NCBI GenBank assembly: GCA_040007815.1
Contig: JBDTUH010000006.1
Span: 267,207 to 299,206 of the forward strand
Direction of reading: 5' to 3'
Source of the DNA: Chitinophagaceae bacterium
GTDB lineage: Bacteria; Bacteroidota; Bacteroidia; Chitinophagales; Chitinophagaceae
Length of the DNA stretch: 32,000 bases
Shown: positions 860-30,191 of the stretch, piece after piece
Layout: each line of letters starts with the position of its first letter
Numbering within the stretch: the stretch's first letter is position 1
Notes under the pieces: generated by a model
Databases searched by the model: none
Seen by the model: only the letters and a program-made list of their open reading frames with translations
What the model was told of the DNA's origin: nothing
Program-made: the position numbers and the translations under genes

Positions 860-1318
860 CTAAAGATGAAAACTACTACTGCTTTTTGACTGTATCAGGA
901 ACTCTCTTAACAACATACTACCCTGCACATCTTTCTGCCAATTTTGCTTTTGCCATTGGCTGTATAATTGTTTTTGATGAAGAAGATTTGCTTTGAGAAA
1001 AGGCAACTGTTGAGAAGAAAAACTATTTATTAGTTCATCACCAGGCAAAGGAACAGATCTGAGAGAAGACAGGTCAATTACTGGTTGTTTTTCTTTTTTA
1101 AAATTAAACTGCAACGATTGCCAACCAGGATATTTCCGGTCTGTTTTATATAATACCGAATTCTTCGGCAATTGCTGTGCATTCCATCTTTGCTGTTCAG
1201 TTATCCGGTAACCTACAACCTGCCGCGGAGTCGGATTTTTTGGCAAACTCTGACTGTTGATAAAAGTGGTATTCAATAAACAAACACCACTACAGATAAA
1301 AAAAATAGTTCGTGGCAT
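860..1318 (-). CDS. Hypothetical secreted protein (152 aa), Gln/Lys-rich
   Basis: Has an ATG start and an N-terminal hydrophobic signal-like segment (FFICSGVCLLNTTFINSQS). It starts 18 bp downstream of the DoxX stop on the same strand. I recognised no family. Confidence 0.45.
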   Translation of the reverse strand: MPRTIFFICSGVCLLNTTFINSQSLPKNPTPRQVVGYRITEQQRWNAQQLPKNSVLYKTDRKYPGWQSLQFNFKKEKQPVIDLSSLRSVPLPGDELINSFSSQQLPFLKANLLHQKQLYSQWQKQNWQKDVQGSMLLREFLIQSKSSSSFHL

Positions 1319-1336
1319 AAAAAGGGTTTTAGTTTT

Positions 1337-1765
1337 CTATTTGTCGGACATCTTAACGGATAATGGCCCATTACCCGCGATCAAAAAATACATAAGCAAC
1401 AGCAATATCAATATGGAAAGAAGTAATTCCGAATACGGTCTTAGCATTTCTTTATTAGTGCTGACAAAGAAAATCGCTCCTATCAGTACAGGAATTTGTA
1501 TAAGGCAGGCGAAACGGGTCAACACGCCAAACGTCAGCAAGATGCCACCGAGTATATGAGCAAAGACTGTATAATGCCCGGCTAAGATATAAGTAAAAGA
1601 TCCGAAAGATGTTTGGGTCGACATCAGTGTAACGAGATCACTCATGTTGTTGAGAAAGTCAATTCCTTTGTAGATCAGGAATATTCCCAAAGCTATACGT
1701 ACAATATCCATCCATCTCGGGTGATGCCGGTCACCCCAATATTCAAGGCGATGCAGGAGGTCCAT
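1337..1765 (-). CDS. DoxX-family integral membrane protein
   Basis: 142 aa with about four hydrophobic helices. 'IVRIALGIFLIYKGIDF' and 'FAHILGGILLTFGVLTRFA..IQIPVL' resemble the DoxX/DoxD pattern. Confidence 0.7.
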   Translation of the reverse strand: MDLLHRLEYWGDRHHPRWMDIVRIALGIFLIYKGIDFLNNMSDLVTLMSTQTSFGSFTYILAGHYTVFAHILGGILLTFGVLTRFACLIQIPVLIGAIFFVSTNKEMLRPYSELLLSILILLLLMYFLIAGNGPLSVKMSDK

Positions 1766-5232: not shown

Positions 5233-7551
5233 ATGAGAGATAGCCATTCTTTTAAATTGCAAAAGAGATTTGCCGGAATATGCTGTATTTACTGCAGTTT
5301 ATTTTTCTTGCTTTCGGTGTCCGTACAGGCCCAGAATAACCTTGAAACCGGGCTTCCTTTTATCACTAACTACCTCGCCAAAAATTACAAGGCCATCCCG
5401 CAAACCTGGTGCATTCAACAGGATGACCGGGGTATTATGTATTTCGGCACTCAAAATTATATACTGGAATTTGATGGCGTAAAATGGAGAAAAATAGCGC
5501 CGGTAAACATTACCCCCACTACCATTTTTCGCTCATTGGTAAGATATAAAGATGGGGTGATCTATTATGGCTCCTATGGAGATTTAGGATACCTCGACAA
5601 AGACAGTCTCGGACAAACAAGAACCCAATCTTTGCTGGAAATTATCCCTGCCGCTAATCGAAATTTTTTAGATGTCTGGACAACTTATGCAGCGGACAAG
5701 GATATCTATTTTCAATCCCGCGAATACATATTCCGTTTAGGCGAAAAAAAATCAGATGGCAAGAGGGACGTCAAGGTTTGGAAACCTGCAAGTAAGTTCA
5801 TGTATGCGTTCTACGTTGACGGCGATTATTATGTTCACCAACAGGGATTAGGTCTTTACAAAATGACCAACGATTCCCTTGTGTTAGTACCAGGAAGTGA
5901 ATTCCTGGGCAAAGAAAGAATGCAGATCCTGTTACCCTTTACGGCGGGGATTAATGGAGAGAAACAATGGCTGGTTGGAATGTTCTATAGCGGCCTCTAC
6001 ATCTACAACGGTAAAACATTTCGTCCATTTCCTACCGGGGCTGATGCTATTATCAAATCGGGCACACTCTTATATAAAGGCGTGAAATTGAAAAATGGGA
6101 ATTATGCATTATCTACGACAGGAAGGGGACTTGTAATAATAGATTCGGTTGGAAAACAGGTTCAAAAAATCAACCGGGATGTCGGATTACAAGATGAATC
6201 CATTTATTCAATATACGAGGATAATAAAGCCACTTTGTGGCTGGCACTTGACAATGGAATATCGAGGGTGGAAACGGCTTCGCCACTGACGCAATTTACT
6301 CTTCAATCGGGAATAAATACCGGTGTGCTTTCTATTCAAAGGTTCAATGGAACCATTTATTTAGGTACTTCTAATGGATTACTGGCGTATGATAACACCA
6401 CAAGTCGTTTTGAACCTGTGCCAGGCATTTCTCAAAACCAGATATTCGCAATCGTGCCGGATGGCGATGAATTACTGGTGTCCGCTGATGGACTCTTTGG
6501 CATAAAAAATAAAAAAGCTTTCACCATCCGGCCTTCGGTAAGTGGCGACCTATCCTTAACATCACTTTACATATCGAAGAAACATCCTGAGATATTGTTG
6601 GGAGGTGGTCAATTTGGCGTGGTGATCTTTACAAAAGAAAAAAGTACCGGCAAATGGCATTTTGAAGGAGATATTCCCGGCATTCCCGAACAGATATGGT
6701 CTTTAACAGAAAATAAAGATGGCTCAATATGGGCCGGATCGGCGAATGGAATAACCTATAGGCTCACCCTTGCCTTTAATGAAAACGGCAGTCTCGTGCC
6801 GGGAAAGACAATCGTAAAAGAGTTTGGACCGGCGCAGGGTTTTAAAGGAGCTGGATTCGCCTCGTCCATTAAAGAAACAAGTTATTTCGTAGCTGATTCC
6901 GCTCTTTACACATTTGATGAAAACAAAAATGAGTTTGTACCTGATACTACGTTCGGAAAGTTTGTTAAGGGAGGGGCTGCGGTCGAATTTTGGATGGCCG
7001 ATGACCCGCAGGGAAGGGTTTGGATGAGAATTGGAAAAGAAACGGTACTGCTGGTTCCCAAACCGGGCGGCGGATACGAGGCGCAAAATAACCGGTTAAA
7101 TTCATTAGCAGACTATAACGTAGGAACACTCTATCCTGAAAAAAATGGCATCCTTTGGATATGTACTACGGACGGATTAATCCGCTATGATGAAAATCTT
7201 GAAAAAAACGAAGACCCCTCTTTTAAAACAATTTTACGGCATATCAGTGCGGGAAAGACAATACTTACTACAGATTCAACGGATAGCAAAAAGACATTAT
7301 CCTACAATAACAACTCATTGCGTTTCGAATACGCCGCTCCTTTTTTCTACCAGGAAAATAAAACCCAATACCAGACATGGCTTGAGGGTTTTGATAAAAG
7401 CTGGTCTGAACTCGATAATAATTATTACAAGGAATACACCAACCTGCCCGTGGGCAAATACAGGTTTCATGTAAGAGCGGTGAATATTTATGGTAACCAG
7501 GGTGAGGAGGCGGTTTACAGTTTTGAAGTTTTACCGCCCTGGTATCTTACC
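5233..7551 (+). other. Extracytoplasmic sensor region of the kinase: signal peptide plus two-component-regulator beta-propeller repeats and a Y_Y_Y domain
   Basis: Signal-like 'ICCIYCSLFFLLSVSVQAQN'. Recurring propeller-repeat signatures 'IYSIYEDNKATLWLALDNGISRV', 'IWSLTENKDGSIWAGSANGI' and 'VGTLYPEKNGILWICTTDGLIRYD'. Y_Y_Y-type block 'YQTWLEGFDKSWSEL..NYYKEYTNLPVGKYRFHVRAVN..G'. This is the architecture known from Bacteroides HTCS sensors. Confidence 0.8.
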
Positions 7552-10500
7552 TGGTGGGCTTTTTTATTGTACGCGTTAGCAGTTGCTGCCATTATCTATT
7601 TCCTTGTGCGCTGGCGCACCCGGCAATTGCATGAAAAACATCGTGAACTGGAAAAAACCGTTGCGACCCGTACCTCGGAATTAAGTCACCGGGTAGAGGA
7701 GTTGGCCGTGATCAACAGCGTACAGGAAGGACTGGTAAAAGAAATGGGCATCCAGGATATTTATGACCTGGTAGGTGAAAAGATACGTACGATATTCAAT
7801 GCACAGGTGATTGACATTGTAACCTACGACCCGAAGACCAATTTGATGGAGGATCGCTATGCTTATGAAAAAGGTGACCGTACGTTATTAGGCGCACGAG
7901 CTCCACAGGGATTCAGGAAATATGTGATAGAAAGTAAACAGGTACAGGTTATCAATGAAGGCATTCAAAAAAGAATGCAGGAATTTGACAATAAGGTATT
8001 GCTGGGTGAGCAATCAAAATCGGTATTATTTGTACCACTCATCACCGGCGGTGAAGTGAGGGGAATTATCAGTTTACAGGACATTGATAAGGAACATGCT
8101 TTTTCGGATTCAGATGTTAGTTTGCTGACAACCCTAGCCAATAGTATGAGCGTGGCGTTGGAAAGTGCCCGTCGTTTTGATGAAACCAATCGGTTGCTGA
8201 AAGAAACGGAACAACGCAATGCGGAGCTGGCTGTTATTAATAGTGTACAGGACGGATTGGTCCGTGAAATGGATATTCAAGGCATTTATTATCTCGTAGG
8301 TGAAAAGATCCGGGAAATTTTTGATGCACAGGTCATTGATATTGTTACTTACGATCGGAAGACAAACCTCATCGACGACAAGTATGCTTATGAAAAAGGA
8401 GACCGGACACTACTTGATCCCAGGGAACCTAAAGGATTCAGGAAACATATTATCGAAACATGTGAGCAATTAGTTATTAATGAGAATGCAGAAGAAATAG
8501 GCAAGCAATACGATAACCAGGTGATGGTGGGTGAGCAGCCAAAATCATTGGTGATGGTTCCGATGATCACCGCTGGCCAGGTGACGGGGATTATAAGTTT
8601 GCAGAATGTAGATCACGACAACGCATTCTCCGATTCCAATGTAAGATTGATCAATACACTGGCCAACAGCATGAGTATAGCATTGGAAAGCGCCAGGCTG
8701 TTTGACGAGACCAAACGACTGTTAAAAGAAACCGAGCAACGCAATGCCGAACTGGCTGTTATTAATAGCGTACAGGACGGGTTGGTTAGAGAAATGAATA
8801 TACAGGGGATTTATGATCTCGTGGGTGAGAAGATCCGGGAAATTTTTGATGCGCAGGTGATTGATATTGTTACCTACGATCGCAAAACAAATATGATTGA
8901 AGACCGGTATTCGTATGAAAAAGGTGATAGAACATTATTAGGTAACCGGGAACCGAAAGGATTCAGAAAGGATGTAATTGATTCATTACAACCAATAGTT
9001 GTAAATGAAGGTCTCGAAAAACATTTCGATGTAAATAACCCGATAGTAGTTGGTGATTTCCCAAAATCAGTGGTGTTTGTACCCATGGTAGTAGCCGGGG
9101 AAATAAAAGGTGTTATCAGTCTTCAGAATATAGATCATGAACATGCTTTCACCGATTCGGATGTAAGCCTGCTTACTACTTTAGCCAACAGTATGAGTGT
9201 GGCCCTGGAAAGTGCCAGGCTCTTTGATGAAACCAATCGTTTACTAAAAGAAACAGAACAAAGAAATGCAGAGCTGGCGGTTATTAATAGTGTGCAGGAA
9301 AGCCTGGTAGCGCAAATGGATATGCAGGGTATTTATGAACTGGTAGGAGAGAAAATGAGAAATATCTTTAACGCCCAGGTTATTGATATCGTCATGTATG
9401 ATCGCAATACGAATCTTATTGAAGATAAATATTCGTATGAAAAAGGCGATAGAACTTTAGTAAAGCCAAGAGAACCTAAAGGATTCAGGAAACATGTTAT
9501 TGAAACAGGTGAAATGCTTTTGCACAATGAGAATGTGGAAGCCATTTCTAAACAATTCGATAATGAAGTGCTGATCGGTGAAATGGCCAAAGCACAAATT
9601 TTCTTCCCACTGATAGCGAGCGGAAAAGTAAATGGCATCATCAGCCTTCAAAATCTTGATCATGAAAATGCTTTCTCTGAATCTGATGTCAGCCTGATCA
9701 CCACCTTAGCCAATAGTATGAGCGTGGCATTGGAAAGCGCAAGGCTTTTTGACGAAACCAACCGTTTACTAAAAGAAACCGAACAACGCAATGCGGAGCT
9801 GGCTGTTATTAATAGTGTACAGGATGGATTGGTTCGTGAAATGGATATACAGGGTATCTATTACCTGGTAGGCGAAAAGATCCGTGAAATTTTTGATGCA
9901 CAAGTAATCGATATCGTTACTTATGACAGAAAAACAAACCGGATAGAAGACAAATATTCTTATGAAAAAGGCGACAGAACTTTAGTTGGCGCCAGGGAAC
10001 CCAGCGGATTCCGGAAACATATCATTGAAACGGGTGAACAATTAGTGATTAACGAGGATGCTGAAAAAGTAGGAGAAAAATATGGTAATAGAGTAATGGT
10101 AGGAGAAGTGCCAAAATCACTGGTATTGGTTCCAATGATTACTGCAGGACAGGTTTCAGGAATCATCAGTCTTCAGAACGTAGATCATGAACATGCTTTC
10201 ACTGATTCCAATGTAAGACTGATCAACACACTTGCGACCAGCATGAGTATCGCATTGGAAAGTGCAAGATTGTTTGATGAAACCAAACGCTTACTGAAGG
10301 AAACAGAGCAACGCAATGCAGAGTTAGGTGTTATCAATAGTGTGCAGGAAGGCTTGGTAAGAGAAATGGATATACAGGGCATTTATGAACTGGTAGGTGA
10401 AAAGATAAGAGAGATTTTCAATGCGCAGGTTATCGATATTGTTACGTACGATCGCACTACCAATCTTATTGAAGACAAATACGCTTTTGAAAAAGGTGAC

Positions 10501-13500
10501 CGGACTTTATTGGGACCGAGGGAACCAAAAGGATTCCGCAAACATGTTATTGAAACCGGTGAAATGCTTTTGAACAATGAAGGTGTAGAAGAAGCCTCCC
10601 GCCAATATGATAATGAAGTGCTCATCGGTGAAATGGCTTTGTCACAGATATTCTTCCCATTAGTAGCGAGTGGAAAAGTGAATGGCATTATCAGCCTGCA
10701 GAATCTCGATCATGAACATGCTTTCTCTGATTCTGATGTTAGCCTGATCACCACTCTTGCTAATAGCATGAGCGTGGCCCTTGAAAGTGCGAGACTGTTT
10801 GATGAAACAAATCGCTTACTAAAAGAAACCGAGCAGCGTAATGATGAGCTGGCTGTTATCAACAGTGTACAGGAAAATTTGGTAGCAAAAATGGATGAGC
10901 AGGGTATTTATGAATTAGTTGGTGAAAAGATTCGCGCAGTCTTCAACGCGCAGGTCATTGACATTGTTACCTACAACAAAACGGATAATCAAATTGAAGA
11001 CAAATATTCTTATGAAAAAGGAGACAGAACTCTATTAGGTCCAAGAATGCCTAAAGGGTTTAGAAAACATGTTATCAGTTCGGGTCGTTCATTGAAAATT
11101 GACAGGGATGTAGAAAAACAAAGATTGGTATATGACAACACGGTTATTTTCGGTGATGCTGCAAAGTCATTGGTCATGGTTCCGATGTTTGCGGATAATG
11201 AAGTAATAGGTGTTATCAGTCTTCAAAACCTCGATAAAGAGAATGCTTTTTCCGATTCTGATGTAAGCCTGCTTTCTACACTCGTCAACAGTATGAGTAT
11301 CGCATTAAAGAGTGCCCGCCTGTTTGATGAAACCAATCGCCTGTTGAAAGAAACAGAACAACGTAAAGCGGAACTGGCGGTAATCAACAATGTACAGGAA
11401 GGGCTGGTAAAAGAATTCAAGTCTAAAGCTATTTATGAATTGGTAGGCGAAAAGCTTTGTGAATTATTTGATACGCAAACCGTATTGATCAGAACATTCG
11501 AGCATGAAACGGGTCTTGAAACATGGCGATATGCAATAGAAAAAGGCCAGCGCCAATACAGTGAACCGAGACCGATGATCTGGGCGAACAAACAATTGAT
11601 ACAAACCCACAAGCCGATTATCATAAACGAAAACTACCTCGAAACAGCGAAAAAATATGGCGGCAGCGGTGTAAGTATTGGCCAACCTCCTAAATCCGCT
11701 GTATTCGTGCCGATGACGGTTGGTGATGTAGTAAGAGGTTCTGTTAGTTTACAAAATGTAGATAAAGAACATGCTTTCAGCGAATCAGAATTAAGTTTAT
11801 TAACTACGCTTACAAGCAGCATGGGAGTAGCGCTGGAGAATGCCCGCCTGTTCGATGAAACCGCGCGGCTCCTTGATGAAACAAAACAAAGAGCAACCGA
11901 GTTAAGCACCGTCAATAATATCAGCCAGACATTAGCCTCGCAGGTTAATCCTGAGGATCTGATAAAACTGGTGGGAGATCAATTGAGAGATCTTTTCAAA
12001 GCAAACGTTGTATACCTTGCCCTGCTTGATCCTGAAACCAAGATCATTTATTTCCCTTATCAGCATGGAGATGATCTTACTCCCATGAAATTGGGTGAGG
12101 GTTTAACCTCGCAGGTATTACTTACCGGAAAATCACTTTTAATTAATAAAGATGTAGATGAACAAACGATCCGTTTGGGTGTCCAGCGATTGGGTGTTCC
12201 TGCCGCCTCTTACCTGGGTGTGCCTATCCCTGTAGGCGATGAGATCATTGGCGTATTAAGCGTTCAAAGCACGGAAAGTGAAAATCGCTTTAATGAAAAC
12301 GACGAACGTCTTTTGTCTACTATCGCGGCTTCGGTGGGTGTAGCTCTGAGAAAAGCACAGCTATTTGAAGAAGTGATACAGGCAAAACAGCAGGCGGAAG
12401 AAGCGAGTAAAACAGCCGATAAAGCCAACCAGGCCAAAAGTGCTTTTCTTTCTACTGTCAGTCATGAGTTAAGAACACCGCTTACGTCTGTATTGGGATT
12501 CGCCAAGATCATTAAAAAAAGATTGGAAGAAAAAATATTTCCGGTAACCAATATAAGTGATCCTAAAATTGAAAAAACGGTTCACCAGATATCGGAAAAT
12601 CTTAACGTGGTTATCTCTGAAGGAGAACGATTAACCAACCTGATCAACGAAGTATTAGATCTTGCTAAGATAGAAGCGGGTAAGATGGAATGGAATATGG
12701 AAACTGTATCCATAAAGGAAGTAGCTGACAGAGCCTTCTCCGCCACTTCTTCGTTATTTGATCAGAAAAATTTAGCGCTCAAAACCAACGTGCCGGAAAA
12801 CCTGCCGATGGTGGTAGGTGATCGTGATAAGTTGATACAAGTGATGGTCAACCTGATCTCCAATGCCGTCAAGTTTACGCCGGCAGGCACTATTACCTGC
12901 ACCATCACACGCAAAAGAAACGAGATCATTACCGGCATTACGGATACAGGTATTGGTATAGCGCCTGCCGATCATGAAGCTGTTTTTGAGCAGTTCAAAC
13001 AAGTAGTGGGGGATACATTGACTGACAAACCCAAAGGCACCGGATTAGGTCTTCCTATTTGTAAAGAAATTGTTGAACATCATAATGGCCGCATCTGGTT
13101 GGAAAGTGAATTAGGAAAAGGAAGTACTTTCTTTTTCGCTCTTCCTGTACAAAAAACGGGTGCGGCTTCGGGAGTATCCAAGCCCATTCACCTGAATGAC
13201 CTGGTAAAACAATTGAAAGAACAAATGGCGCAGTCCAGCCTGAACATGAAAGGAAAGAACGCTACTATATTGATTGTGGATGATGATGACTCTATCCGTT
13301 CTCTGCTTGACCAGGAGTTGGGTGATGCCGGCTATATCATCGAACAAGCAACCAATGGAAAAGAAGCCCTGGCAAGTGTCCGTAATCATAAGCCGGATCT
13401 TATCATTCTTGATGTGATGATGCCGGAGATGAATGGGTTTGATGTAGCGGCCATCTTGAAGAACGATCCTCAAACCATGGACATACCCATCATTGTATTA

Positions 13501-13860
13501 TCCATTGTACAGGATAAAGCCAGGGGATTCCGTATTGGCGTTGATCGATATCTCACCAAACCTATTGATACCGCGCAATTATTTACGGAAGTAGGCAGCT
13601 TATTGGAGCAAGGCAAGTCCAAGAAAAAAGTAATGGTGGTGGATGAAGATAAAACCGCAGTCGGCACATTAACTGACATACTGCAGGCAAAGGGTTACCA
13701 GGTGGTTGAATCGGATGGAAAGGAAATGGTTGAAAAAGCTATACTAAACCAACCGGATATCATTATCCTGAGCTCTGTGTTGTCAGAGCAGCATGAAATG
13801 GTTCAGTCATTGCGTTTTGAAAAAGGACTGGAAAATGTGTTGTTCCTGATTTATCAATAG
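5233..13860 (+). CDS. Giant hybrid sensor histidine kinase (2875 aa): signal peptide, periplasmic propeller + Y_Y_Y, TM, 9x GAF, HisKA-HATPase_c, REC, truncated pseudo-REC
   Basis: A single uninterrupted 8628-nt ORF. The domain motifs are listed in the sub-features below. Confidence 0.92.
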   Translation: MRDSHSFKLQKRFAGICCIYCSLFFLLSVSVQAQNNLETGLPFITNYLAKNYKAIPQTWCIQQDDRGIMYFGTQNYILEFDGVKWRKIAPVNITPTTIFRSLVRYKDGVIYYGSYGDLGYLDKDSLGQTRTQSLLEIIPAANRNFLDVWTTYAADKDIYFQSREYIFRLGEKKSDGKRDVKVWKPASKFMYAFYVDGDYYVHQQGLGLYKMTNDSLVLVPGSEFLGKERMQILLPFTAGINGEKQWLVGMFYSGLYIYNGKTFRPFPTGADAIIKSGTLLYKGVKLKNGNYALSTTGRGLVIIDSVGKQVQKINRDVGLQDESIYSIYEDNKATLWLALDNGISRVETASPLTQFTLQSGINTGVLSIQRFNGTIYLGTSNGLLAYDNTTSRFEPVPGISQNQIFAIVPDGDELLVSADGLFGIKNKKAFTIRPSVSGDLSLTSLYISKKHPEILLGGGQFGVVIFTKEKSTGKWHFEGDIPGIPEQIWSLTENKDGSIWAGSANGITYRLTLAFNENGSLVPGKTIVKEFGPAQGFKGAGFASSIKETSYFVADSALYTFDENKNEFVPDTTFGKFVKGGAAVEFWMADDPQGRVWMRIGKETVLLVPKPGGGYEAQNNRLNSLADYNVGTLYPEKNGILWICTTDGLIRYDENLEKNEDPSFKTILRHISAGKTILTTDSTDSKKTLSYNNNSLRFEYAAPFFYQENKTQYQTWLEGFDKSWSELDNNYYKEYTNLPVGKYRFHVRAVNIYGNQGEEAVYSFEVLPPWYLTWWAFLLYALAVAAIIYFLVRWRTRQLHEKHRELEKTVATRTSELSHRVEELAVINSVQEGLVKEMGIQDIYDLVGEKIRTIFNAQVIDIVTYDPKTNLMEDRYAYEKGDRTLLGARAPQGFRKYVIESKQVQVINEGIQKRMQEFDNKVLLGEQSKSVLFVPLITGGEVRGIISLQDIDKEHAFSDSDVSLLTTLANSMSVALESARRFDETNRLLKETEQRNAELAVINSVQDGLVREMDIQGIYYLVGEKIREIFDAQVIDIVTYDRKTNLIDDKYAYEKGDRTLLDPREPKGFRKHIIETCEQLVINENAEEIGKQYDNQVMVGEQPKSLVMVPMITAGQVTGIISLQNVDHDNAFSDSNVRLINTLANSMSIALESARLFDETKRLLKETEQRNAELAVINSVQDGLVREMNIQGIYDLVGEKIREIFDAQVIDIVTYDRKTNMIEDRYSYEKGDRTLLGNREPKGFRKDVIDSLQPIVVNEGLEKHFDVNNPIVVGDFPKSVVFVPMVVAGEIKGVISLQNIDHEHAFTDSDVSLLTTLANSMSVALESARLFDETNRLLKETEQRNAELAVINSVQESLVAQMDMQGIYELVGEKMRNIFNAQVIDIVMYDRNTNLIEDKYSYEKGDRTLVKPREPKGFRKHVIETGEMLLHNENVEAISKQFDNEVLIGEMAKAQIFFPLIASGKVNGIISLQNLDHENAFSESDVSLITTLANSMSVALESARLFDETNRLLKETEQRNAELAVINSVQDGLVREMDIQGIYYLVGEKIREIFDAQVIDIVTYDRKTNRIEDKYSYEKGDRTLVGAREPSGFRKHIIETGEQLVINEDAEKVGEKYGNRVMVGEVPKSLVLVPMITAGQVSGIISLQNVDHEHAFTDSNVRLINTLATSMSIALESARLFDETKRLLKETEQRNAELGVINSVQEGLVREMDIQGIYELVGEKIREIFNAQVIDIVTYDRTTNLIEDKYAFEKGDRTLLGPREPKGFRKHVIETGEMLLNNEGVEEASRQYDNEVLIGEMALSQIFFPLVASGKVNGIISLQNLDHEHAFSDSDVSLITTLANSMSVALESARLFDETNRLLKETEQRNDELAVINSVQENLVAKMDEQGIYELVGEKIRAVFNAQVIDIVTYNKTDNQIEDKYSYEKGDRTLLGPRMPKGFRKHVISSGRSLKIDRDVEKQRLVYDNTVIFGDAAKSLVMVPMFADNEVIGVISLQNLDKENAFSDSDVSLLSTLVNSMSIALKSARLFDETNRLLKETEQRKAELAVINNVQEGLVKEFKSKAIYELVGEKLCELFDTQTVLIRTFEHETGLETWRYAIEKGQRQYSEPRPMIWANKQLIQTHKPIIINENYLETAKKYGGSGVSIGQPPKSAVFVPMTVGDVVRGSVSLQNVDKEHAFSESELSLLTTLTSSMGVALENARLFDETARLLDETKQRATELSTVNNISQTLASQVNPEDLIKLVGDQLRDLFKANVVYLALLDPETKIIYFPYQHGDDLTPMKLGEGLTSQVLLTGKSLLINKDVDEQTIRLGVQRLGVPAASYLGVPIPVGDEIIGVLSVQSTESENRFNENDERLLSTIAASVGVALRKAQLFEEVIQAKQQAEEASKTADKANQAKSAFLSTVSHELRTPLTSVLGFAKIIKKRLEEKIFPVTNISDPKIEKTVHQISENLNVVISEGERLTNLINEVLDLAKIEAGKMEWNMETVSIKEVADRAFSATSSLFDQKNLALKTNVPENLPMVVGDRDKLIQVMVNLISNAVKFTPAGTITCTITRKRNEIITGITDTGIGIAPADHEAVFEQFKQVVGDTLTDKPKGTGLGLPICKEIVEHHNGRIWLESELGKGSTFFFALPVQKTGAASGVSKPIHLNDLVKQLKEQMAQSSLNMKGKNATILIVDDDDSIRSLLDQELGDAGYIIEQATNGKEALASVRNHKPDLIILDVMMPEMNGFDVAAILKNDPQTMDIPIIVLSIVQDKARGFRIGVDRYLTKPIDTAQLFTEVGSLLEQGKSKKKVMVVDEDKTAVGTLTDILQAKGYQVVESDGKEMVEKAILNQPDIIILSSVLSEQHEMVQSLRFEKGLENVLFLIYQ
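7552..7608 (+). other. Single transmembrane helix of the kinase
   Basis: 'WWAFLLYALAVAAIIYFLV' is followed by a basic stretch, 'RWRTRQLHEKHR'. Confidence 0.8.
7696..12408 (+). repeat. In-frame tandem array of nine GAF-domain coding units (174-176 codons each)
   Basis: Unit starts, anchored on the (A/E/D/T)EL(A/G/S)V(I/V)N codons, are 7696, 8221, 8746, 9268, 9793, 10318, 10843, 11368 and 11896, with the array ending at 12408. Each unit reads '..ELAVINSVQ.GLV.EM..QGIY.LVGEKIR.IF.AQVIDIVTYD..TN.IED.Y.YEKGDRTL...R.P.GFRK.VI....(variable ~30 aa)..PKS....P........G.ISLQN.D.E.AF.DSDV.L..TLANSMS.ALESARLFDETNRLLKETEQRN'. Units 8 and 9 are progressively more divergent. Confidence 0.9.
12409..13152 (+). 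other. HisKA dimerisation/phosphoacceptor plus HATPase_c catalytic core
   Basis: H-box 'FLSTVSHELRTPL' (His codon 12463-12465). N-box 'LISNAVKFTP'. G1 'DTGIGIAPADHEAVFEQF'. G2 'GTGLGLPICKEIVEHHNGRIWLESELGKGSTFFFALP'. Confidence 0.9.
13261..13608 (+). other. Receiver domain 1 (apparently intact)
   Basis: 'ILIVDDDD' acidic pocket, 'LIILDVMMPEMNG' (acceptor Asp codon 13411-13413), 'IIVLS' and 'YLTKP' (conserved Lys). Confidence 0.85.
13621..13857 (+). other. Receiver domain 2: degenerate and truncated pseudo-receiver
   Basis: 'VMVVDEDK' and 'PDIIILSSVL' align with REC1, but Ser replaces the acceptor Asp. The ORF stops right after the beta4-equivalent 'VLFLIYQ', so the Thr/Ser, the conserved Lys and alpha4-beta5-alpha5 are absent. 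Confidence 0.7.
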
Positions 13861-13940
13861 TATTTCCGAATGACGAATTATCAATTAATACAATCAAATG
13901 AAATTTAACAAAATAAACAGCAAAAAACAGTTTTTAAGAA

Positions 13941-13958
13941 TGTCACCCCTTCGGGGTT
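13941..13958 (+). repeat. REP-type hairpin TGTCACCCCTTCGGGGTT
   Basis: The 5-bp stem ACCCC/GGGGT has a TTC loop. An exact 18-nt inverted copy lies at 14067-14084. Confidence 0.85.
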
Positions 13959-13995
13959 TATAGCAATATTATGATAGCTTTTCTATATTAATATC

Positions 13996-14120
13996 ATCCC
14001 TTCGGGATTATGAACAAGCCTGAAAGGCTGACATTACTATAGCTTAAGTGTCAATTAGCGCATCGAAACCCCGAAGGGGTGACAAAATACTCCTTATGAA
14101 ACAACACAGCCGTATGGCTG
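13996..14120. repeat. Three further short hairpins between and after the REP pair
   Basis: ATCCC-TTC-GGGAT (13996-14008), AGCCT-GAA-AGGCT (14017-14029) and CAGCC-GTAT-GGCTG (14107-14120). All were read directly from the sequence. Confidence 0.6.
14067..14084 (-). repeat. REP-type hairpin, an inverted exact copy of 13941-13958
   Basis: The plus strand reads AACCCCGAAGGGGTGACA, whose reverse complement is TGTCACCCCTTCGGGGTT. Confidence 0.85.
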
Positions 14121-14223
14121 CAATTAAAACAGAATGCAAAAATTAAATGATTAAAACTCCTGCATGCAATGAGAAAACCGGTTAAACGCCTAAGAGATGA
14201 TATGTTAAAAAATTAAACAAATT

Positions 14224-14682
14224 ATGCCAGGCACGTTTTCTCAAATATATATTCAAATCGTTTTTGCTGTAAAAGGCAGGCAAAACTTCCTTTTGCCCTC
14301 TTTTGAACAGGATGTTTATAAATATATGTTTGGTATTATTAAGGAGAAAAAAAAACCTCTTGCAGTAAATGGTATGCCAGATCATATTCACGTTTTAGTC
14401 GGGTTAAAACCCGCTATGTGCATTTCGGATCTGGTTCGAGACATAAAAAACAATTCAACAAATTTTATAAATAGAAAAAATTGGCTGAAACAAGATTTCT
14501 CCTGGCAGGAAGACTATGGCGCATTTTCTTATTCACAATCAAACTTTGGGCACGTGATTGATTATATCAAAAACCAAAAGAAACATCACCAAAAGTTTTC
14601 TTTCAAAAAAGAATATTTTTCCCTTTTAAAGAAATTTGAAATCACTTTTGAAGAAAAATATTTGTTTGAATTTTATGACTAG
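14224..14682 (+). CDS. IS200/IS605-family Y1 (HUH) transposase, RAYT-like (152 aa)
   Basis: HUH motif in 'PDHIHVLVGL'. C-terminal 'FSWQEDYGAFSYSQS....VIDYIKNQKKHH' is the catalytic-Tyr block typical of COG1943/REP-associated tyrosine transposases. The N-terminus 'YIQIVFAVKGRQ' is also typical. Confidence 0.88.
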   Translation: MPGTFSQIYIQIVFAVKGRQNFLLPSFEQDVYKYMFGIIKEKKKPLAVNGMPDHIHVLVGLKPAMCISDLVRDIKNNSTNFINRKNWLKQDFSWQEDYGAFSYSQSNFGHVIDYIKNQKKHHQKFSFKKEYFSLLKKFEITFEEKYLFEFYD

Positions 14683-14739
14683 CGTGATGGCATCCCTTCA
14701 GGGTTTTAATTGAAAATTAATGGATACAAAAATTATAAA

Positions 14740-15117
14740 ATGGAACAAAAGATTTTAATTGTAGATGATGAAGCGCATATCCGTATGCTGATAGAACAAA
14801 CCCTGGAAGAGCTGGAAGACGAAGGAGTGGAATTTTTAACGGCGGAGAATGGAGAAATAGCTTTGGCGATCATCCAGGAAGAGCAGCCACAGCTCGTGTT
14901 TTTGGATGTGATGATGCCGAAGATGAACGGTATGGATGTTTGCAAACGGGTAAAAAAAGAATTAGGACTTACCAATGTTTATATCGCATTACTCACAGCA
15001 AAGGGGCAGGAACTTGACCGGCAAAAAGGACAGGAAGTGGGTGCGGATATTTATATGACCAAGCCGTTTGATCCCGAAGTGATACTACGGAAAGCAAGAG
15101 AGGTACTGGGGCTCTGA
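14740..15117 (+). CDS. Single-domain CheY-like response regulator
   Basis: 'ILIVDDE', 'LVFLDVMMPKMNG', 'ALLTAKG' and 'IYMTKPF' give all the canonical receiver residues. I prefer ATG 14740 over the TTG at 14710 listed in the track. Confidence 0.88.
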   Translation: MEQKILIVDDEAHIRMLIEQTLEELEDEGVEFLTAENGEIALAIIQEEQPQLVFLDVMMPKMNGMDVCKRVKKELGLTNVYIALLTAKGQELDRQKGQEVGADIYMTKPFDPEVILRKAREVLGL

Positions 15118-15136
15118 CAGATCAGTATAAAATCAC

Positions 15137-16816
15137 ATGGCAAAACTAAGTCTTAAGAATATCATTGGTAAAAAAAATGGCAACACTTCGTTGCTGCTTT
15201 CATTGATTGCTCAATTGAAAGCTGACTTGTTTATTGAAGATGAACAGGAAAAATTTTTAGCCGGAAATAGTAATGCGCAGATCACTTACAGCTATCCCGT
15301 TTTGCTGGATGAAGAAATATTGGGTTGGGTTAAAGGTGATGGAAACGCAGAATGTATTGCATCATTACTTTCTTTGCTGGCTCAAAAAGACATGGAGAAA
15401 AAAAAATTGGGCAGTGAAGTATTGGCATTATACCAGGAAGTAAACATGGTCTTCAATTTTTCCGATAAGCTGGCGCAGGCTATTGAACCCACCGCTATTG
15501 CCGGGATCACACTGGATGAAGCCATGCACCTGATTAAGTCAAACAGCGGGCTGGTCGTCTTGTGGGATGAAAGCAGCAAGCAATTGCAAGTTCCCGCATC
15601 TTCAGGTGAGGAATTATTTAATAAAGAAAAAATAAGTACAAATGCCGGCCTAATGCTCAAAATCGGTTTAAGCGGGCAATCGGATATTATGAGCGACCTC
15701 GCTACATTAAGGGACGCCGGAATTATTGGCCCGTTTGTTCAATCGCTGATGTATGCGGCATTGAAAGTAAAGCATCGGGTAATGGGAGCCATCATTATGG
15801 CAAGCCATGAACCTATGCGATACGCGGCATCCGATCTGAAGTTTCTGACAACACTGGCTTTACAATCTTCTTCCGCTATCGAAAGTGCTTTGCTTTATGA
15901 AAAAAATATCCGCGAAGCAAGGGAAAAAGAAGAAGCCATGCGTCGTATTTATGAAATAACGGCCAAGTTTGTTCCTTATGAATTTATTGGTTCGCTGGGT
16001 CATGACGTTATCACCGATGTGAGGTTGGGCGACCAGGTTGAAAAAGTAGTAACTGTTTTATTTACGGATATCCGCGATTATACCTCTTTATCAGAAAGAA
16101 TGACGCCGGAAGAAAACTTCCAGTTTGTTTGCGCCTACAATGAAACACTCGGCCCCATCATACGTAACCATAACGGTTTTATCAATCAATACCTTGGTGA
16201 TGCGATCATGGCGCTTTTTCCCGGCAGTGCGGCAGATGCCTTAGCAGCAGCTGTTGAAATGAGAAAAAATATACATGAACTTAATATTAAAAGAAGTTTG
16301 AAAAACCTGTCCCCTATACAAATCGGCATAGGTATGCATACCGGTTCTTTGATCATGGGCATTACGGGAGATAAAGACAGGCTGGATGCCACTACTATTT
16401 CTGATACGGTAAATACCGCATCCCGTATTGAAAGCCTTACCAAATATTATAAAGCCGGCATTTTATTGAGCGACGCCACCTTGCAACAAATAGAAGATCA
16501 TCAACAATTTAATTTGCGATACCTTGGAAAAGTGCAGGTAAAAGGCAAACAGGAGCCGGTTGGCTTACATGAATGTTTCAGTGGAAGCAATGAAGAAGAG
16601 ATATTGATAAAAGAAAAAACACTCCCCCTTTTCAATGAAGGAATGAATCATTATTTGAACAGGTCTTTTTCTTCAGCCATAAAATCATTTCAATCTATAA
16701 CAGCAACATATCCGGCAGACCTTACTGCTGAATTCTTTTTAACCAATGCTACCCGTTACTTGCAAAAAGGAGTTCCCGAAGATTGGACAGGTGTGGTGGA
16801 AATGACCAATAAATAG
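15137..16816 (+). CDS. GAF-domain-containing class III adenylate/guanylate cyclase with a TPR-like C-terminal tail
   Basis: It starts 19 bp after the response-regulator stop. The central GAF-like region ends 'FLTTLALQSSSAIESALLYE'. Cyclase core: 'VTVLFTDIRDYTSLSE' (metal Asp), 'INQYLGDAIMALF' (metal Asp) and 'TISDTVNTASRIES' (Asn/Arg). Confidence 0.88.
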   Translation: MAKLSLKNIIGKKNGNTSLLLSLIAQLKADLFIEDEQEKFLAGNSNAQITYSYPVLLDEEILGWVKGDGNAECIASLLSLLAQKDMEKKKLGSEVLALYQEVNMVFNFSDKLAQAIEPTAIAGITLDEAMHLIKSNSGLVVLWDESSKQLQVPASSGEELFNKEKISTNAGLMLKIGLSGQSDIMSDLATLRDAGIIGPFVQSLMYAALKVKHRVMGAIIMASHEPMRYAASDLKFLTTLALQSSSAIESALLYEKNIREAREKEEAMRRIYEITAKFVPYEFIGSLGHDVITDVRLGDQVEKVVTVLFTDIRDYTSLSERMTPEENFQFVCAYNETLGPIIRNHNGFINQYLGDAIMALFPGSAADALAAAVEMRKNIHELNIKRSLKNLSPIQIGIGMHTGSLIMGITGDKDRLDATTISDTVNTASRIESLTKYYKAGILLSDATLQQIEDHQQFNLRYLGKVQVKGKQEPVGLHECFSGSNEEEILIKEKTLPLFNEGMNHYLNRSFSSAIKSFQSITATYPADLTAEFFLTNATRYLQKGVPEDWTGVVEMTNK

Positions 16817-17761: not shown

Positions 17762-19780
17762 TTAATAGCTCAGTATTTTCTGAATTGTTTCATCCAACCT
17801 TTTTTTCGCCAGGAAATTATTTTCCAGTTCAATACTAAATGGAATAGGTGTGTCTAATGATGCGCAGCGCATCACCGGCGCATCCAATAAACTAAAACAA
17901 TTTTCAGCTATCCAGGCCGCTATTTCTCCTCCAATGCCACCTGTCAATGTATCCTCATGCAGTATCAGTACTCTTCCTGTTCGTTCGACGGATTCCCGTA
18001 TAGCGAGATAATCAAGTGGTAATAAGGTTCGCAGATCAAGAATATCAATGGACTTTTCAGGATGTTCAGCTGCAAATTCTTCGGCCCAATGAACACCACT
18101 TCCATAGGTGATGATACTTATTTCATCACCTTCCAGTACATGACGGGCTTTACCTATCTCAATTTCATAATAGTCTTGCGGCACTGCGCCGCTTACGCTA
18201 CGGTATAACGCTTTGTGCTCAAAGAATAATACAGGGTTAGGATCATTAATAGCGGCAATTAATAATCCCTTCGCATCAACAGGTGTAGAAGGATATACAA
18301 TTTTTAATCCGGGGGTATGCACGAACCATGCTTCATTACTTTGACTATGAAACGGACCAGCGCCAACACCGCCGCCTGTAGGCATCCGTATCACCACATC
18401 CGCATTTTGTCCCCAGCGGTAATGTATCTTGGCAAGATTGTTTATGATTTGATTAAACCCTACCGTTACAAAATCAGCGAACTGCATTTCCATCATACTT
18501 TTATATCCTTCGAGGCTTAATCCCAATGCCGCGCCTACGATAACACTTTCACAGATGGGTGTGTTTCTTACCCTTGCTTTGCCAAACTCTGCAGCAAAAC
18601 CATCTGTAATCTTAAATGCTCCGCCATATTCTGCAATGTCCTGTCCCATCAGGATTAAATTCGCATGAACTTCCATACTTTGATGGAGACCTTCTTTGAT
18701 TGCGTCAATCAACCGGAGATCGTGAGTCGTGAATCGTGAGTCAAGTGAATTCTTCGAGTTATCGACAATTCTGGCTTCTGACTTCTGACTTCCGGCTTCC
18801 CTCTCGGCATACACATCATTCAATTCTTCTTCTGTGTCAGCTATAACCGGTGCTGTATTCATACCGGTTGCCAGCTCCTGTTCTATTTTTTCTTTTAATT
18901 CCTCTTTTATATTCGCTATATCATCCGATGATAAGATATGCTGCCCTGCTAAATATTCTTCATAATTTTTTACCGGGTCTTTTTTCTCCCATAGTTCAAA
19001 AATGTTTTGCGGAACATATTTGGTGCCGCTGGCTTCCTCATGTCCCCGCATCCGAAAAGTCATTGCTTCTACCAGGTAGGGTTTCTGGTGTTTGATGCAA
19101 TATTCCCTTATTCCTTTTATCGTATCATACACCTGCAACAAATTATTGCCATCTATTTGCACTCCATCCATACCATAGCCTTTGGCTCTATCCACCAAAC
19201 TGATACAACGATATTGTTCATTGGTTGGCGTACTTAAACCATAACCGTTATTCTCTATTAAAAAAATAACCGGCAGATCCCATACCGCGGCTACATTTAG
19301 TGCTTCGTGAAAATCACCTTCGCTGGTACCACCTTCTCCCGTAAAGCCTAAGGATACTTTATCTTCCTTTCTGAGTTTATGCGCCAATGCTATGCCATCA
19401 GCAATGGCTAATTGCGGTCCAAGATGAGAGATCATTCCGCAGATATGATGTTCCCGGCTGCCAAAATGAAAACTTCTTTCTCTTCCTTTACTATACCCTT
19501 CCTGTGCACCCTGCCATTGCATGAAGAGTTTGCTCAATGGCATATTGCGTGTTGTAAAAACACCGAGATTACGATGCAATGGCATGATCCATTCATCATC
19601 ATCCAAGGCTAATGTGGCGCCTACAGCAATGGCCTCCTGCCCGATACCGCTAAACCACTTAGAAATTTTCCCCTGCCGCAACAGGATCAGCATTTTTTCT
19701 TCTATCATCCTGGGATATAGAATGCTGCGGTAAAACTGAACCAGCTGGTCATTAGATAAATCTTTTCTGTCGAAGCCCAT
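17762..19780 (-). CDS. Fused alpha/beta E1 component of a 2-oxoacid (branched-chain/pyruvate-type) dehydrogenase, TPP-dependent
   Basis: The N-terminal half has the TPP motif 'GEGGTSEGDFHEALNVAAVWDLPVIFLIENNGYG'. The C-terminal half is E1-beta-like ('MGQDIAEYGGAFK.T.GF...FG..RV.NTPI.E', 'FADF'). The ORF is a single 672 aa. Confidence 0.88.
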   Translation of the reverse strand: MGFDRKDLSNDQLVQFYRSILYPRMIEEKMLILLRQGKISKWFSGIGQEAIAVGATLALDDDEWIMPLHRNLGVFTTRNMPLSKLFMQWQGAQEGYSKGRERSFHFGSREHHICGMISHLGPQLAIADGIALAHKLRKEDKVSLGFTGEGGTSEGDFHEALNVAAVWDLPVIFLIENNGYGLSTPTNEQYRCISLVDRAKGYGMDGVQIDGNNLLQVYDTIKGIREYCIKHQKPYLVEAMTFRMRGHEEASGTKYVPQNIFELWEKKDPVKNYEEYLAGQHILSSDDIANIKEELKEKIEQELATGMNTAPVIADTEEELNDVYAEREAGSQKSEARIVDNSKNSLDSRFTTHDLRLIDAIKEGLHQSMEVHANLILMGQDIAEYGGAFKITDGFAAEFGKARVRNTPICESVIVGAALGLSLEGYKSMMEMQFADFVTVGFNQIINNLAKIHYRWGQNADVVIRMPTGGGVGAGPFHSQSNEAWFVHTPGLKIVYPSTPVDAKGLLIAAINDPNPVLFFEHKALYRSVSGAVPQDYYEIEIGKARHVLEGDEISIITYGSGVHWAEEFAAEHPEKSIDILDLRTLLPLDYLAIRESVERTGRVLILHEDTLTGGIGGEIAAWIAENCFSLLDAPVMRCASLDTPIPFSIELENNFLAKKRLDETIQKILSY

Positions 19781-26814: not shown

Positions 26815-27390
26815 ATGAAATCACTTACCGGTTTCTTTGATGCCATTTCTCCATTGAAAGAAAAAACATGGGAAGAGTTATTGCCACTGTTTAAAGAAAC
26901 CGCGCTTTCAGCTAACGAATATTTTGTAAGAGAAAATGAAGTAGCGCGAAAAATAGCTTTTTTAGAATCCGGTGTGGTCAGAGCTTTCTTCATCAACCAG
27001 GAAGGCCAGGAATACAACAAACAATTTTTTGTAGGGCCTTCCAGCATTGGTGGCTATACCTCCTTACTTACCGGTAAGGCTAATCTTATTCCCCAGCAGG
27101 CCTTAACCGATTGCAAAATATGCAGCTGCGATTTCAGGTCGTTAACGGATCGATATGATCAATATCCTGATCTTGAACGGCTGGCAAGGAAAATGGCCGA
27201 ATACTATTTTTTGGAAAAAGAAAAAAAGGAATTGGAAATTGTTTTGTTAGACGCCTCTCAGCGATACAGGATATTTCAAAAAGAATTTCCAACGCTTGAA
27301 CAGCTCATTCCTCAATACCATATCGCCTCCTATCTTGGTATCTCCGCTACGCAGTTGAGCCGGATACGTCATCAATTTGCCAATAAATAG
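26815..27390 (+). CDS. Crp/Fnr-family transcriptional regulator (cNMP-binding domain plus C-terminal HTH)
   Basis: At 191 aa, it has an N-terminal beta-roll-like region ('FVRENEVARKIAFLESGVVRAF') and the C-terminal HTH 'IASYLGISATQLSRIR'. Confidence 0.82.
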   Translation: MKSLTGFFDAISPLKEKTWEELLPLFKETALSANEYFVRENEVARKIAFLESGVVRAFFINQEGQEYNKQFFVGPSSIGGYTSLLTGKANLIPQQALTDCKICSCDFRSLTDRYDQYPDLERLARKMAEYYFLEKEKKELEIVLLDASQRYRIFQKEFPTLEQLIPQYHIASYLGISATQLSRIRHQFANK

Positions 27391-27405
27391 ATAGCGGCTC
27401 CTTTC

Positions 27406-27419
27406 TTTACATATGTAAA
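27406..27419. promoter_or_regulatory. Perfect 14-bp palindrome TTTAC-ATAT-GTAAA, a candidate operator
   Basis: The sequence is self-complementary. It lies 16 bp after the Crp/Fnr-family gene stop and 56 bp before the ATG of the next gene. The 5-N4-5 geometry matches FNR-type boxes. Confidence 0.4.
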
Positions 27420-27474
27420 TGCTTTTCCTTTTGTGGTGCTGTTGCTTTGTACCATCAAATCAACTTAAAAACAA

Positions 27475-28599: not shown

Positions 28600-28631
28600 A
28601 CAAGCAAGCATTTACTATACAAAATAACATT

Positions 28632-29171
28632 ATGATAAAGCAGGGGAACAGCATAACAAATGCAAGGACAGGCCAGCGAATGATCTTTTTACAAACATGG
28701 GCGGAAACAAACGGCACTCAACTGCAGATCGAATGCTTTAGCCCGGTGACAACTCTAAAAGAGCCGGAGCATATTCACCCCTTCCAGGAAAACAGGTTTA
28801 AGTTATTAAATGGAGAGCTTTGTTTTTGTATTAACGGAAAGGAACAGATTGTTTATGCCGGTGATTCCATATCAATTCCTAAAAATGTTCCCCATCATTT
28901 CCGGAACTCCGGAAATACCGAAGCACACTATATCCAGGAGTTTTATCCCGCTTTACGAATTGACCGGCTTTTCGAAACGTTTTTTGCTCTCGCCCGTGAT
29001 GGAAAGTTGAACCGGAAGGGTGCTCCCAATATCTTTCGTACATCCGTAATTATGCTGGCGCATGAAAAGGAGATCAGGTTGGCGAAACCGGCATGGGTTC
29101 TACAAAAAACTCTTTTTACTTTATTGGCGCCGGTTGGTAAATTGTTGGGTTACAAAGATGAATACAATTAA
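28632..29171 (+). CDS. Cupin-domain protein
   Basis: 'EHIHPFQENRF....G' followed by 'GDSISIPKNVPHHFRN' gives cupin motifs 1 and 2 with His/Glu metal ligands. Confidence 0.72.
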   Translation: MIKQGNSITNARTGQRMIFLQTWAETNGTQLQIECFSPVTTLKEPEHIHPFQENRFKLLNGELCFCINGKEQIVYAGDSISIPKNVPHHFRNSGNTEAHYIQEFYPALRIDRLFETFFALARDGKLNRKGAPNIFRTSVIMLAHEKEIRLAKPAWVLQKTLFTLLAPVGKLLGYKDEYN

Positions 29172-29262
29172 GGGCAATGTATTTATTGAAAAATAATTAC
29201 CGGGTTAATTATCTGAAAGTAATTTTTATCTTTCCTGTTCCAAGGCCTTAACTAAAATCAGC

Positions 29263-30117: not shown

Positions 30118-30191
30118 CTTCTATAAAATCGGAAACCGAAAAGCCGGGTTGTATTGTATTTTTACCGGCGATATATCAAACGTAAACTAAA

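Follow-up and report, generated by a model that had tools for sequence, protein, structure and literature searches.

Here we describe a putative three-gene signalling cassette in a 32,000-nt stretch of DNA from a Chitinophagaceae bacterium (GenBank assembly GCA_040007815.1, contig JBDTUH010000006.1, positions 267,207 to 299,206; hereafter the window). Positions 5233-16816 carry four genes on the + strand, assigned from the list of open reading frames (ORFs) and from Pfam: a hybrid histidine kinase (HK), a RAYT transposase (REP-associated tyrosine transposase, where REP stands for repetitive extragenic palindromic), a free CheY-like receiver, and a class III nucleotidyl cyclase (Table 1). An earlier note on this DNA had proposed that the kinase, the receiver, and the cyclase act together, and the ORF list agreed with the coordinates and the shared strand it gave for them. 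Our analysis suggests that these three genes form one conserved signalling cassette, in which the kinase would phosphorylate the free receiver and the receiver would in turn switch synthesis of a cyclic nucleotide monophosphate (cNMP). Judging from sequence comparisons, we give this whole mechanism a probability of about 0.6. Its standing as a module is supported by synteny, by output swaps in which the head of the third protein is kept, and by single-protein fusions.

Conservation of the neighbourhood had been set beforehand as a test, and the trio passes it strongly. Using the cyclase and the kinase core as anchors, we collected loci and ran tblastn on them with every part of the three proteins as query. 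The kinase, the receiver, and a protein that opens with the N-terminal domain (N-domain) and GAF domain of the cyclase were adjacent and co-directional in about 110 loci from Chitinophagaceae, Saprospiraceae, Cyclobacteriaceae, and Acidobacteriota, such that the trio is kept in both Bacteroidota and Acidobacteriota. Within Chitinophagaceae, the order kinase, receiver, cyclase on one strand held wherever a locus had enough flank. Of 109 N-GAF loci in total, 105 had flank, and in all 105 a receiver of the same clade lay 6-121 bp upstream of the N-GAF gene; nearly all of the 77 kinase-anchored loci were ordered kinase, receiver, N-GAF-X, with X as the output. More than 25 loci from Acidobacteriota carried the trio (Granulicella, Terracidiphilus, Bryobacter, Solibacteraceae, and Vicinamibacteria), with a kinase core 56-67% identical to that of the window and with genes that overlapped or lay a few bp apart. 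In one Granulicella locus (L139), for example, the kinase ends at 11926 and the receiver starts at 11923, an overlap of 4 nt, and the third gene begins 8 nt past the receiver. Cultured relatives with the cassette include Terrimonas pollutisoli, Flavihumibacter petaseus NBRC 106054, and Ginsengibacter hankyongi, and Granulicella aggregans has its PP2C version. Because synteny spans two phyla, chance adjacency of the trio was rejected. Of 120 genera sampled from the family, 14 had the N-domain cassette, each time in single copy, and the source genome has just one N-domain protein. This patchy occurrence within the family, taken with the high identity across phyla, suggests that the cassette spreads horizontally between lineages, Bacteroidota and Acidobacteriota included.

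In the aligned loci, the third gene always opened with the same N-domain and GAF domain, but its catalytic part differed. This head was followed by a class III cyclase in 82 loci (Chitinophagaceae, other Bacteroidota, and two Acidobacteriota, Bryobacter L149 and L143), by a SpoIIE/PP2C phosphatase in 21 loci of Acidobacteriota, and by a HisKA-HATPase-REC-cyclase arrangement in three (L054, L130, and L162). Searching 1.84 billion representatives with an N-domain profile gave 812 proteins at E <=0.001, and in nearly all of the 150 matches listed of these 812 the domain starts at residue 1. We ran a Pfam scan on 37 of the longer N-domain proteins from this search (at least 463 aa). The outputs were class III cyclase (15), SpoIIE/PP2C (12), histidine kinase (6, one of them HK-REC-AraC), GGDEF (2), DUF6909 (2), HD-GYP (1), and AraC plus cyclase (1). 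A locus search with one relative of the DUF6909 type (P0240) returned a single locus that matched the DUF6909 part alone. A word-based homologue search with the N-domain gave, among 120 matches listed, only near-identical 559-aa cyclases, with no new architectures and no receiver fusions. On these comparisons the N-domain-GAF head has the pattern of a portable input module. In every locus inspected the head had the free receiver as its constant partner, and it is chiefly on this that we base the idea of a phosphorylated receiver acting on the head.

Single proteins that join related parts were also found. A 1507-aa protein from Lewinellaceae/Saprospiraceae (L055) reads Reg_prop-YYY-TM-HisKA-HATPase-REC-cyclase (TM, transmembrane), and a cyanobacterial protein (L065) reads dCache-HAMP-HK-REC-cyclase. 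Kinase, receiver, and cyclase thus share one polypeptide in L055, L065, L054, and L162, and are three separate ORFs in the window. Outside its orthologues, the closest relative of the window's cyclase is that of the Lewinellaceae fusion, with a cyclase domain that is 55% identical and has the same Gln at the specificity position described below. The fusions therefore indicate that the lineage of the window's cyclase is run by transfer from kinase to receiver without an Hpt domain. The L054-type third gene, N-GAF-HK-REC-cyclase, appears to link the split and fused designs. In a tree of receivers, three clades were recovered, comprising the kinase-attached receiver (REC1), the stand-alone receiver, and the cyclase-fused receiver; the first two showed parallel branching, as expected for co-inherited partners.

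The window's cyclase matched the N-GAF-HK-REC-cyclase proteins in two overlapping pieces (L054, 8027-10879; L162, 12385-15240; and L130). In L054 these pieces covered aa 1-293 and 268-559, so that the linker at aa 268-293 of the window's cyclase seemingly occurs twice, once after the GAF domain and once before the cyclase. This apparent duplication hints that the window-type cyclase arose by deletion of HK-REC between two similar linkers, or that an insertion went the other way.

The receiver was the most conserved of the three proteins, which suggests that it has more than one interaction surface. Its identity to the receiver of the window was 79-92% in Chitinophagaceae and mostly 69-74% in Acidobacteriota. 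It carries D9, D10, the acceptor D56, T86, and K108 and has no output domain, as is typical of a CheY-like single-domain regulator, and these signature residues were unchanged wherever they were aligned (111-115 of 116 loci). The ATG at 14740 agrees with the starts of its orthologues. In a metagenome-assembled genome of Saprospiraceae (L132, 4781-5540), two tandem copies of the stand-alone receiver were seen between the kinase and the N-GAF-cyclase gene.

Pfam matched neither an Hpt domain nor a helix-turn-helix (HTH) domain in the 2875-aa kinase, HTH_18 and HTH_AraC included, in line with what had been claimed for it. The further claim that the kinase ends in receiver domains held for REC1, a complete receiver with its acceptor at D2727, but not for the second domain, a truncated pseudo-receiver with Ser at the acceptor position that aligned with positions 1-52 (the first half) of the Response_reg profile only. 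Among 116 orthologues, the acceptor position of the pseudo-receiver was Asn in 105, Ser in 10, Arg in one, and Asp in none, and all of them shared the same '…LIYQ' ending. The signature residues of REC1 were retained wherever aligned (115-117 of 117 orthologues). We rejected the idea that the RAYT insertion had cut the pseudo-receiver short, because an equally short, non-Asp tail is present in the 116 orthologues that have no insert; the pseudo-receiver is ancestral and older than the insertion.

The GAF units of the kinase are 174-176 aa long, and every unit closes with a near-invariant helical linker (…ARLFDETNRLLKETEQRNAELAVINSVQ…). Identity among units was 65-87% for units 1-7, about 49% for unit 8, and about 28% for unit 9. 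Tandem Repeats Finder reported no repeats in the kinase because the 525-nt unit is longer than its 500-nt period limit, and the units were delimited by a script instead. Copy number varied widely: the 71 complete orthologues had between 1 and 14 units with a mode of 2, distributed as one unit in 8 kinases, two in 30, three in 8, four in 6, five in 3, six in 1, seven in 10, eight in 1, nine in 1, ten in 2, and fourteen in 1. The Reg_prop/Y_Y_Y sensor region was only 27-63% identical among orthologues and was lost in several. The kinases of L173 and L103 no longer have the extracytoplasmic domain but keep two membrane segments, and ten further orthologous kinases are soluble, having neither sensor nor TM helix, starting about 30 aa ahead of the first GAF unit and carrying 6-12 units. 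Given that several lineages do without the extracytoplasmic domain, the conserved core of the kinase reads, by comparison, as GAF(n)-HK-REC-pseudoREC. The proposal of a periplasmic, glycan-type input found no support: the sensor is optional in relatives and lost in many orthologues that keep the GAF array, and the window offers no context of a polysaccharide utilization locus (PUL). In L173, whose cyclase is 90% identical to that of the window, the kinase has nine GAF units and has lost the entire Reg_prop/YYY domain.

The cyclase gene begins 19 bp past the receiver gene. Its unassigned N-terminal segment and GAF domain were both present as previously described, the Pfam-less segment being about 115 aa rather than about 90 aa long. 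AlphaFold2 (AF2) models of the N-GAF head and of the N-domain alone had mean confidence scores (predicted local distance difference test, pLDDT) of 86.9 and 89.7, respectively, and predicted a helix (residues 16-26) followed by four strands (31-67) and a long helix (71-113) that continues into a canonical GAF domain. Foldseek matched the N-domain alone to no solved structure at a significant level (best E 0.07), and with the N-GAF head its matches were mostly to GAF. The catalytic domain matched Guanylate_cyc at 70.2 bits (cut-off 21.9) and, when aligned to PDB entries 2w01 and 3r5g, was found to have the metal-binding Asp311 and Asp355 as well as Asn426 and Arg430 of class III cyclases.

At the specificity positions the cyclase is unusual. 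Gln351 (motif 'INQYLGD') takes the place of the adenine-specifying Lys of canonical adenylate cyclases, and likewise of the Glu found at this first position in guanylate cyclases, and a class IIIb-like Thr419 occupies the second position. This Gln was present in all aligned members of the Bacteroidota clade, Lewinellaceae fusions included, whereas cyanobacterial, Leptospira, and other relatives had Lys. Among 12 class III cyclase domains in the genome, six have Gln at the Lys position and one has Asn (contigs C6, C7, C15, C18, C22, and others), and cyclases of the Gln type seem to be common in this lineage as an uncharacterised class. In Rv0386 of Mycobacterium tuberculosis, an adenylate cyclase, this position is likewise Gln. 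The product is probably cyclic AMP (cAMP), but the Gln351/Thr419 pair does not fix the base, since a Lys replaced by Gln, as in half of the genome's class III cyclases, does not let the product be read from the sequence.

As had been noted, a REP/RAYT insert, seen as a Y1_Tnp gene with GC palindromes in an 879-bp gap, lies between the kinase and the receiver. With this insertion in place, 879 bp separate the kinase from the receiver-cyclase pair in the source strain, compared with about 40-130 bp from kinase stop to receiver start in the orthologues read. The transposase has the HUH motif 'HIHVLV', and its Y1_Tnp match and recurring flanking palindromes identify it as a RAYT. REP-like GC palindromes flank its gene at about 13941-13958, 13996-14008, 14067-14084, and 14692-14705; they recur beside a RAYT paralogue on contig C30 and also on contigs C34 and C40. 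The genome has six RAYT paralogues, which are diverged (at most 59% aa identity). Two close relatives have no insert: the distance between kinase and receiver is 43 bp in L172 (94-98% DNA identity) and 45 bp in L173 (about 90%). Because it is absent from both, the insertion appears to be strain-specific and very recent. The syntenic region of L173 has several toxin-antitoxin-type genes that were not found in the window (938-1398, 12771-13346, and 18744-19055; HicA/UPF0150, Zeta_toxin, and ParE). On this comparison the neighbourhood has the look of a hotspot for small mobile insertions, with which the RAYT insert is consistent.

We propose the following mechanism for the cassette. The kinase would integrate input, for which its cytoplasmic GAF array is the probable route and the extracytoplasmic Reg_prop/YYY region an optional one, and would autophosphorylate at His2411. 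With no Hpt step, the phosphoryl group would pass straight to two competing receivers, D2727 of REC1 and D56 of the stand-alone receiver, with REC1 serving as an intramolecular brake or sink, as in RsbK. Once phosphorylated, the free receiver would dock on the head of the third protein, in which a small alpha/beta domain leads through a long helix into the GAF domain. Docking would alter the helical linker that joins this head to the dimer of the class III cyclase, and would so switch cNMP synthesis. The cNMP could be read by at least 23 proteins with a cNMP-binding domain in the genome (24 matches, 23 of them above the Pfam cut-off), a Crp-like one encoded at 26815-27390 among them. We infer the His-to-Asp transfer to the free receiver, the role of REC1 as brake or sink, the docking on the N-GAF head, and the activation of the cyclase from context. 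A broader reading, which we hold tentatively and at slightly less than even odds, is that the N-domain, long helix, and GAF domain are an undescribed reader module for the phosphorylated free receiver. The cassette would then consist of a multi-GAF kinase, a CheY-like shuttle, and a reader head, with outputs that are swapped and a history of movement between phyla, and the kinase would sense mainly through its expandable array of 1-14 GAF units rather than through the periplasmic domain.

Several points weigh against the proposed mechanism. Two kinase orthologues (L111 and L120) have several kb of downstream sequence yet no receiver or cyclase. The cyclase-fused receivers form their own clade, which makes the fusions analogues and not fused orthologues of the stand-alone receiver, and a strict Rosetta-stone argument for that receiver was rejected for this reason. 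No fusion of the stand-alone receiver clade to an N-GAF head was seen among the 150 profile matches listed. The cyclase's GAF domain could answer to a small ligand with no involvement of the receiver, Hpt domains are divergent enough for one to have gone unnoticed, and the RAYT insert may affect co-transcription or uncouple expression in the source strain. The missing fusion would also fit a receiver that serves the kinase solely as phosphate sink or feedback modulator and makes no contact with the cyclase; the cyclase would then be run by its GAF ligand, and the genes linked by co-regulation alone. Single-domain regulators that act as sinks, hubs, and kinase inhibitors are documented (PMC3868531, PMC5964349, PMC9430884), and the complete GAF fold modelled for the third protein could bind a ligand. 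However, a pure sink need not stay beside an N-GAF protein through output swaps in two phyla. The N-domain, moreover, is found once per genome in the 14 of 120 sampled genera that have it, inside the cassette in the loci fetched, and the strong conservation of the receiver points to additional surfaces. We therefore consider a sink role on its own unlikely.

The phosphoryl group could also travel by a classical His-Asp-His-Asp relay, from REC1 through an Hpt domain encoded elsewhere to the stand-alone receiver. REC1 appears functional by its signature residues, and the whole 7.49-Mb genome does contain one Hpt match; this sole match is marginal (24.3 bits) and lies inside a different hybrid kinase, at its C-terminus (contig C8). 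Pfam found no Hpt protein in the window, as the earlier note had stated, and none in the cassettes of Pfam-scanned relatives. The fused relatives run HK-REC-cyclase without an Hpt domain, and a hybrid kinase that lacks Hpt and has a separate cognate regulator has precedent in RsbK/RsbY (PMC4574943). A relay of this kind is highly improbable. Finally, the module might be broken in the source strain, if the insert halts read-through so that the receiver and cyclase are silent, or if a new promoter and another kinase have taken over. The 879-bp insert does bring hairpins and a gene of its own, and it is absent from relatives that are 90-98% identical, but all three ORFs are intact with every key residue, and REP/RAYT elements need not terminate transcription. 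A scan of 13700-15300 with promoter and terminator consensus sequences, which are poorly suited to Bacteroidota, showed no clear + strand terminator between the kinase stop and the RAYT gene. Breakage of the module is improbable, and it concerns expression and does not conflict with the ancestral function.

A limited literature search found no description of a kinase-receiver-N-GAF cassette. Several known systems come closest to it. CyaC of Spirulina/Anabaena (REC-GAF-GAF-HK-REC-class IIIb adenylate cyclase) is activated by its intrinsic kinase, which phosphorylates the proximal receiver (PMC3009899). Like CyaC, the cassette would place a class III cyclase under Hpt-less two-component control with GAF domains upstream, and the variant in L054, L130, and L162, in which a free receiver accompanies N-GAF-HK-REC-cyclase, resembles a split CyaC. 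Unlike CyaC, the window has three proteins, a kinase that is a giant multi-GAF membrane protein, and a cyclase that has no receiver of its own but an N-domain and GAF head, and in which Gln replaces the specificity Lys. The hybrid kinase RsbK of Bacillus cereus has a C-terminal receiver that is inhibitory, and the REC-PP2C protein RsbY is its separate cognate regulator (PMC4574943). In the cassette too, a hybrid kinase without Hpt, with its own receiver as a regulatory element, would signal to a separate receiver, and the Acidobacteriota version of the cassette likewise ends in a PP2C/SpoIIE phosphatase. The receiver of RsbY, however, is fused to the phosphatase, whereas that of the cassette is free and its enzyme has an N-domain-GAF head; the cassette also has no RsbM-type methyltransferase.

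In the Pil-Chp system of Pseudomonas aeruginosa, deletion of pilG results in cAMP levels similar to those after deletion of cyaB (PMC3019171, PMC10519157). A stand-alone CheY-like regulator (PilG) below a complex kinase thus sets the cAMP output of a class III cyclase (CyaB), as we propose for the cassette. Pil-Chp differs in being chemosensory, in its CheA-type kinase with Hpt domains, and in its intermediaries FimL and FimV, and it has neither a three-gene cassette nor an N-GAF head. In the hybrid two-component systems (HTCS) of Bacteroides, too, a single polypeptide joins an extracytoplasmic Reg_prop/Y_Y_Y sensor to one TM helix, HisKA-HATPase, and a receiver, and transfer takes place without Hpt. 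In contrast to these, the window's kinase has no AraC HTH and no PUL (SusC/SusD) neighbours, has a nine-unit GAF array between the TM helix and the kinase core, and delegates its output to separate proteins. In cyanobacterial CyaB1/CyaB2, N-terminal GAF domains control a C-terminal class III cyclase via a helical linker, and the GAF domains bind cAMP, giving autoactivation (PMC4411481). The window's cyclase shares the order of N-terminal GAF, helical linker, and C-terminal class III cyclase, but its single GAF domain sits behind a novel domain and its gene is always paired with a receiver gene.

Two-component control of class III cyclases is known from fusions such as CyaC, and how free CheY-like receivers find targets other than DNA is much less understood. 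The cassette offers a testable pairing of one highly conserved free receiver with one unannotated head that is found on at least seven outputs. Should docking indeed take place on this head, the head would represent a new family of input domains with about 800 cluster representatives, allow pathway predictions for cAMP/cyclic GMP, PP2C partner-switching, and cyclic di-GMP outputs in soil Bacteroidota and Acidobacteriota, and provide a portable part for synthetic signalling. The kinase orthologues (1-14 GAF units, with or without the sensor) are in turn a natural series for asking how signals cross long tandem GAF rods.

Table 1. Features of the kinase-receiver-cyclase region, in coordinates of the window.
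Feature	Position	Strand	Evidence
Hybrid sensor histidine kinase, 2875 aa	5233..13860	+	ORF, Pfam domains, orthologues with equal part order
Kinase: signal/anchor and extracytoplasmic Reg_prop beta-propeller + Y_Y_Y sensor, aa 1-770	5233..7542	+	Pfam
Kinase: TM helix, aa 770-792	7540..7608	+	Read from sequence
Kinase: nine tandem GAF units, aa 824-2395	7702..12417	+	Pfam and repeat script
Kinase: HisKA (H-box His2411) + HATPase_c core	12433..13152	+	Pfam, residue check
Kinase: attached receiver REC1 (D2683/D2684, acceptor D2727, S2757, K2776)	13267..13590	+	Pfam, residue check
Kinase: truncated pseudo-receiver, ~78 aa, Ser2847 at acceptor position, ends after beta4	13621..13857	+	Response_reg profile
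Insertion separating kinase from receiver, 879 bp	13861..14739	.	Apparently strain-specific; gap comparison with orthologues
RAYT / IS200-like Y1 transposase, 152 aa	14224..14682	+	Pfam Y1_Tnp, E 4.6e-21
Stand-alone CheY-like receiver, 125 aa	14740..15117	+	Pfam Response_reg, signature residues
Cyclase gene, 559 aa	15137..16816	+	
Cyclase: N-domain, aa 1-113	15137..15475	+	No Pfam family; AF2 model
Cyclase: GAF domain, aa 118-249	15488..15883	+	Pfam GAF_3 + GAF_2, AF2 model, structural matches
Cyclase: class III catalytic domain, aa 303-473	16043..16555	+	Pfam Guanylate_cyc; alignment to PDB 2w01, 3r5g
Cyclase: C-terminal helical tail, aa 481-559	16577..16813	+	Conserved in orthologues and Lewinellaceae fusions; no Pfam family

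Other genes in the window encode a beta-lactamase-family protein, a DUF418 protein, a GDSL lipase, and an E1 dehydrogenase, among others. A second cNMP-related cluster was observed on the + strand at 26815-31298, comprising a Crp-like cNMP-binding protein (26815-27390), a strictosidine-synthase-like protein, a cupin, an alpha/beta hydrolase, and a membrane cyclase (30192-31298) that also has Gln at the Lys position ('YQYVGD').

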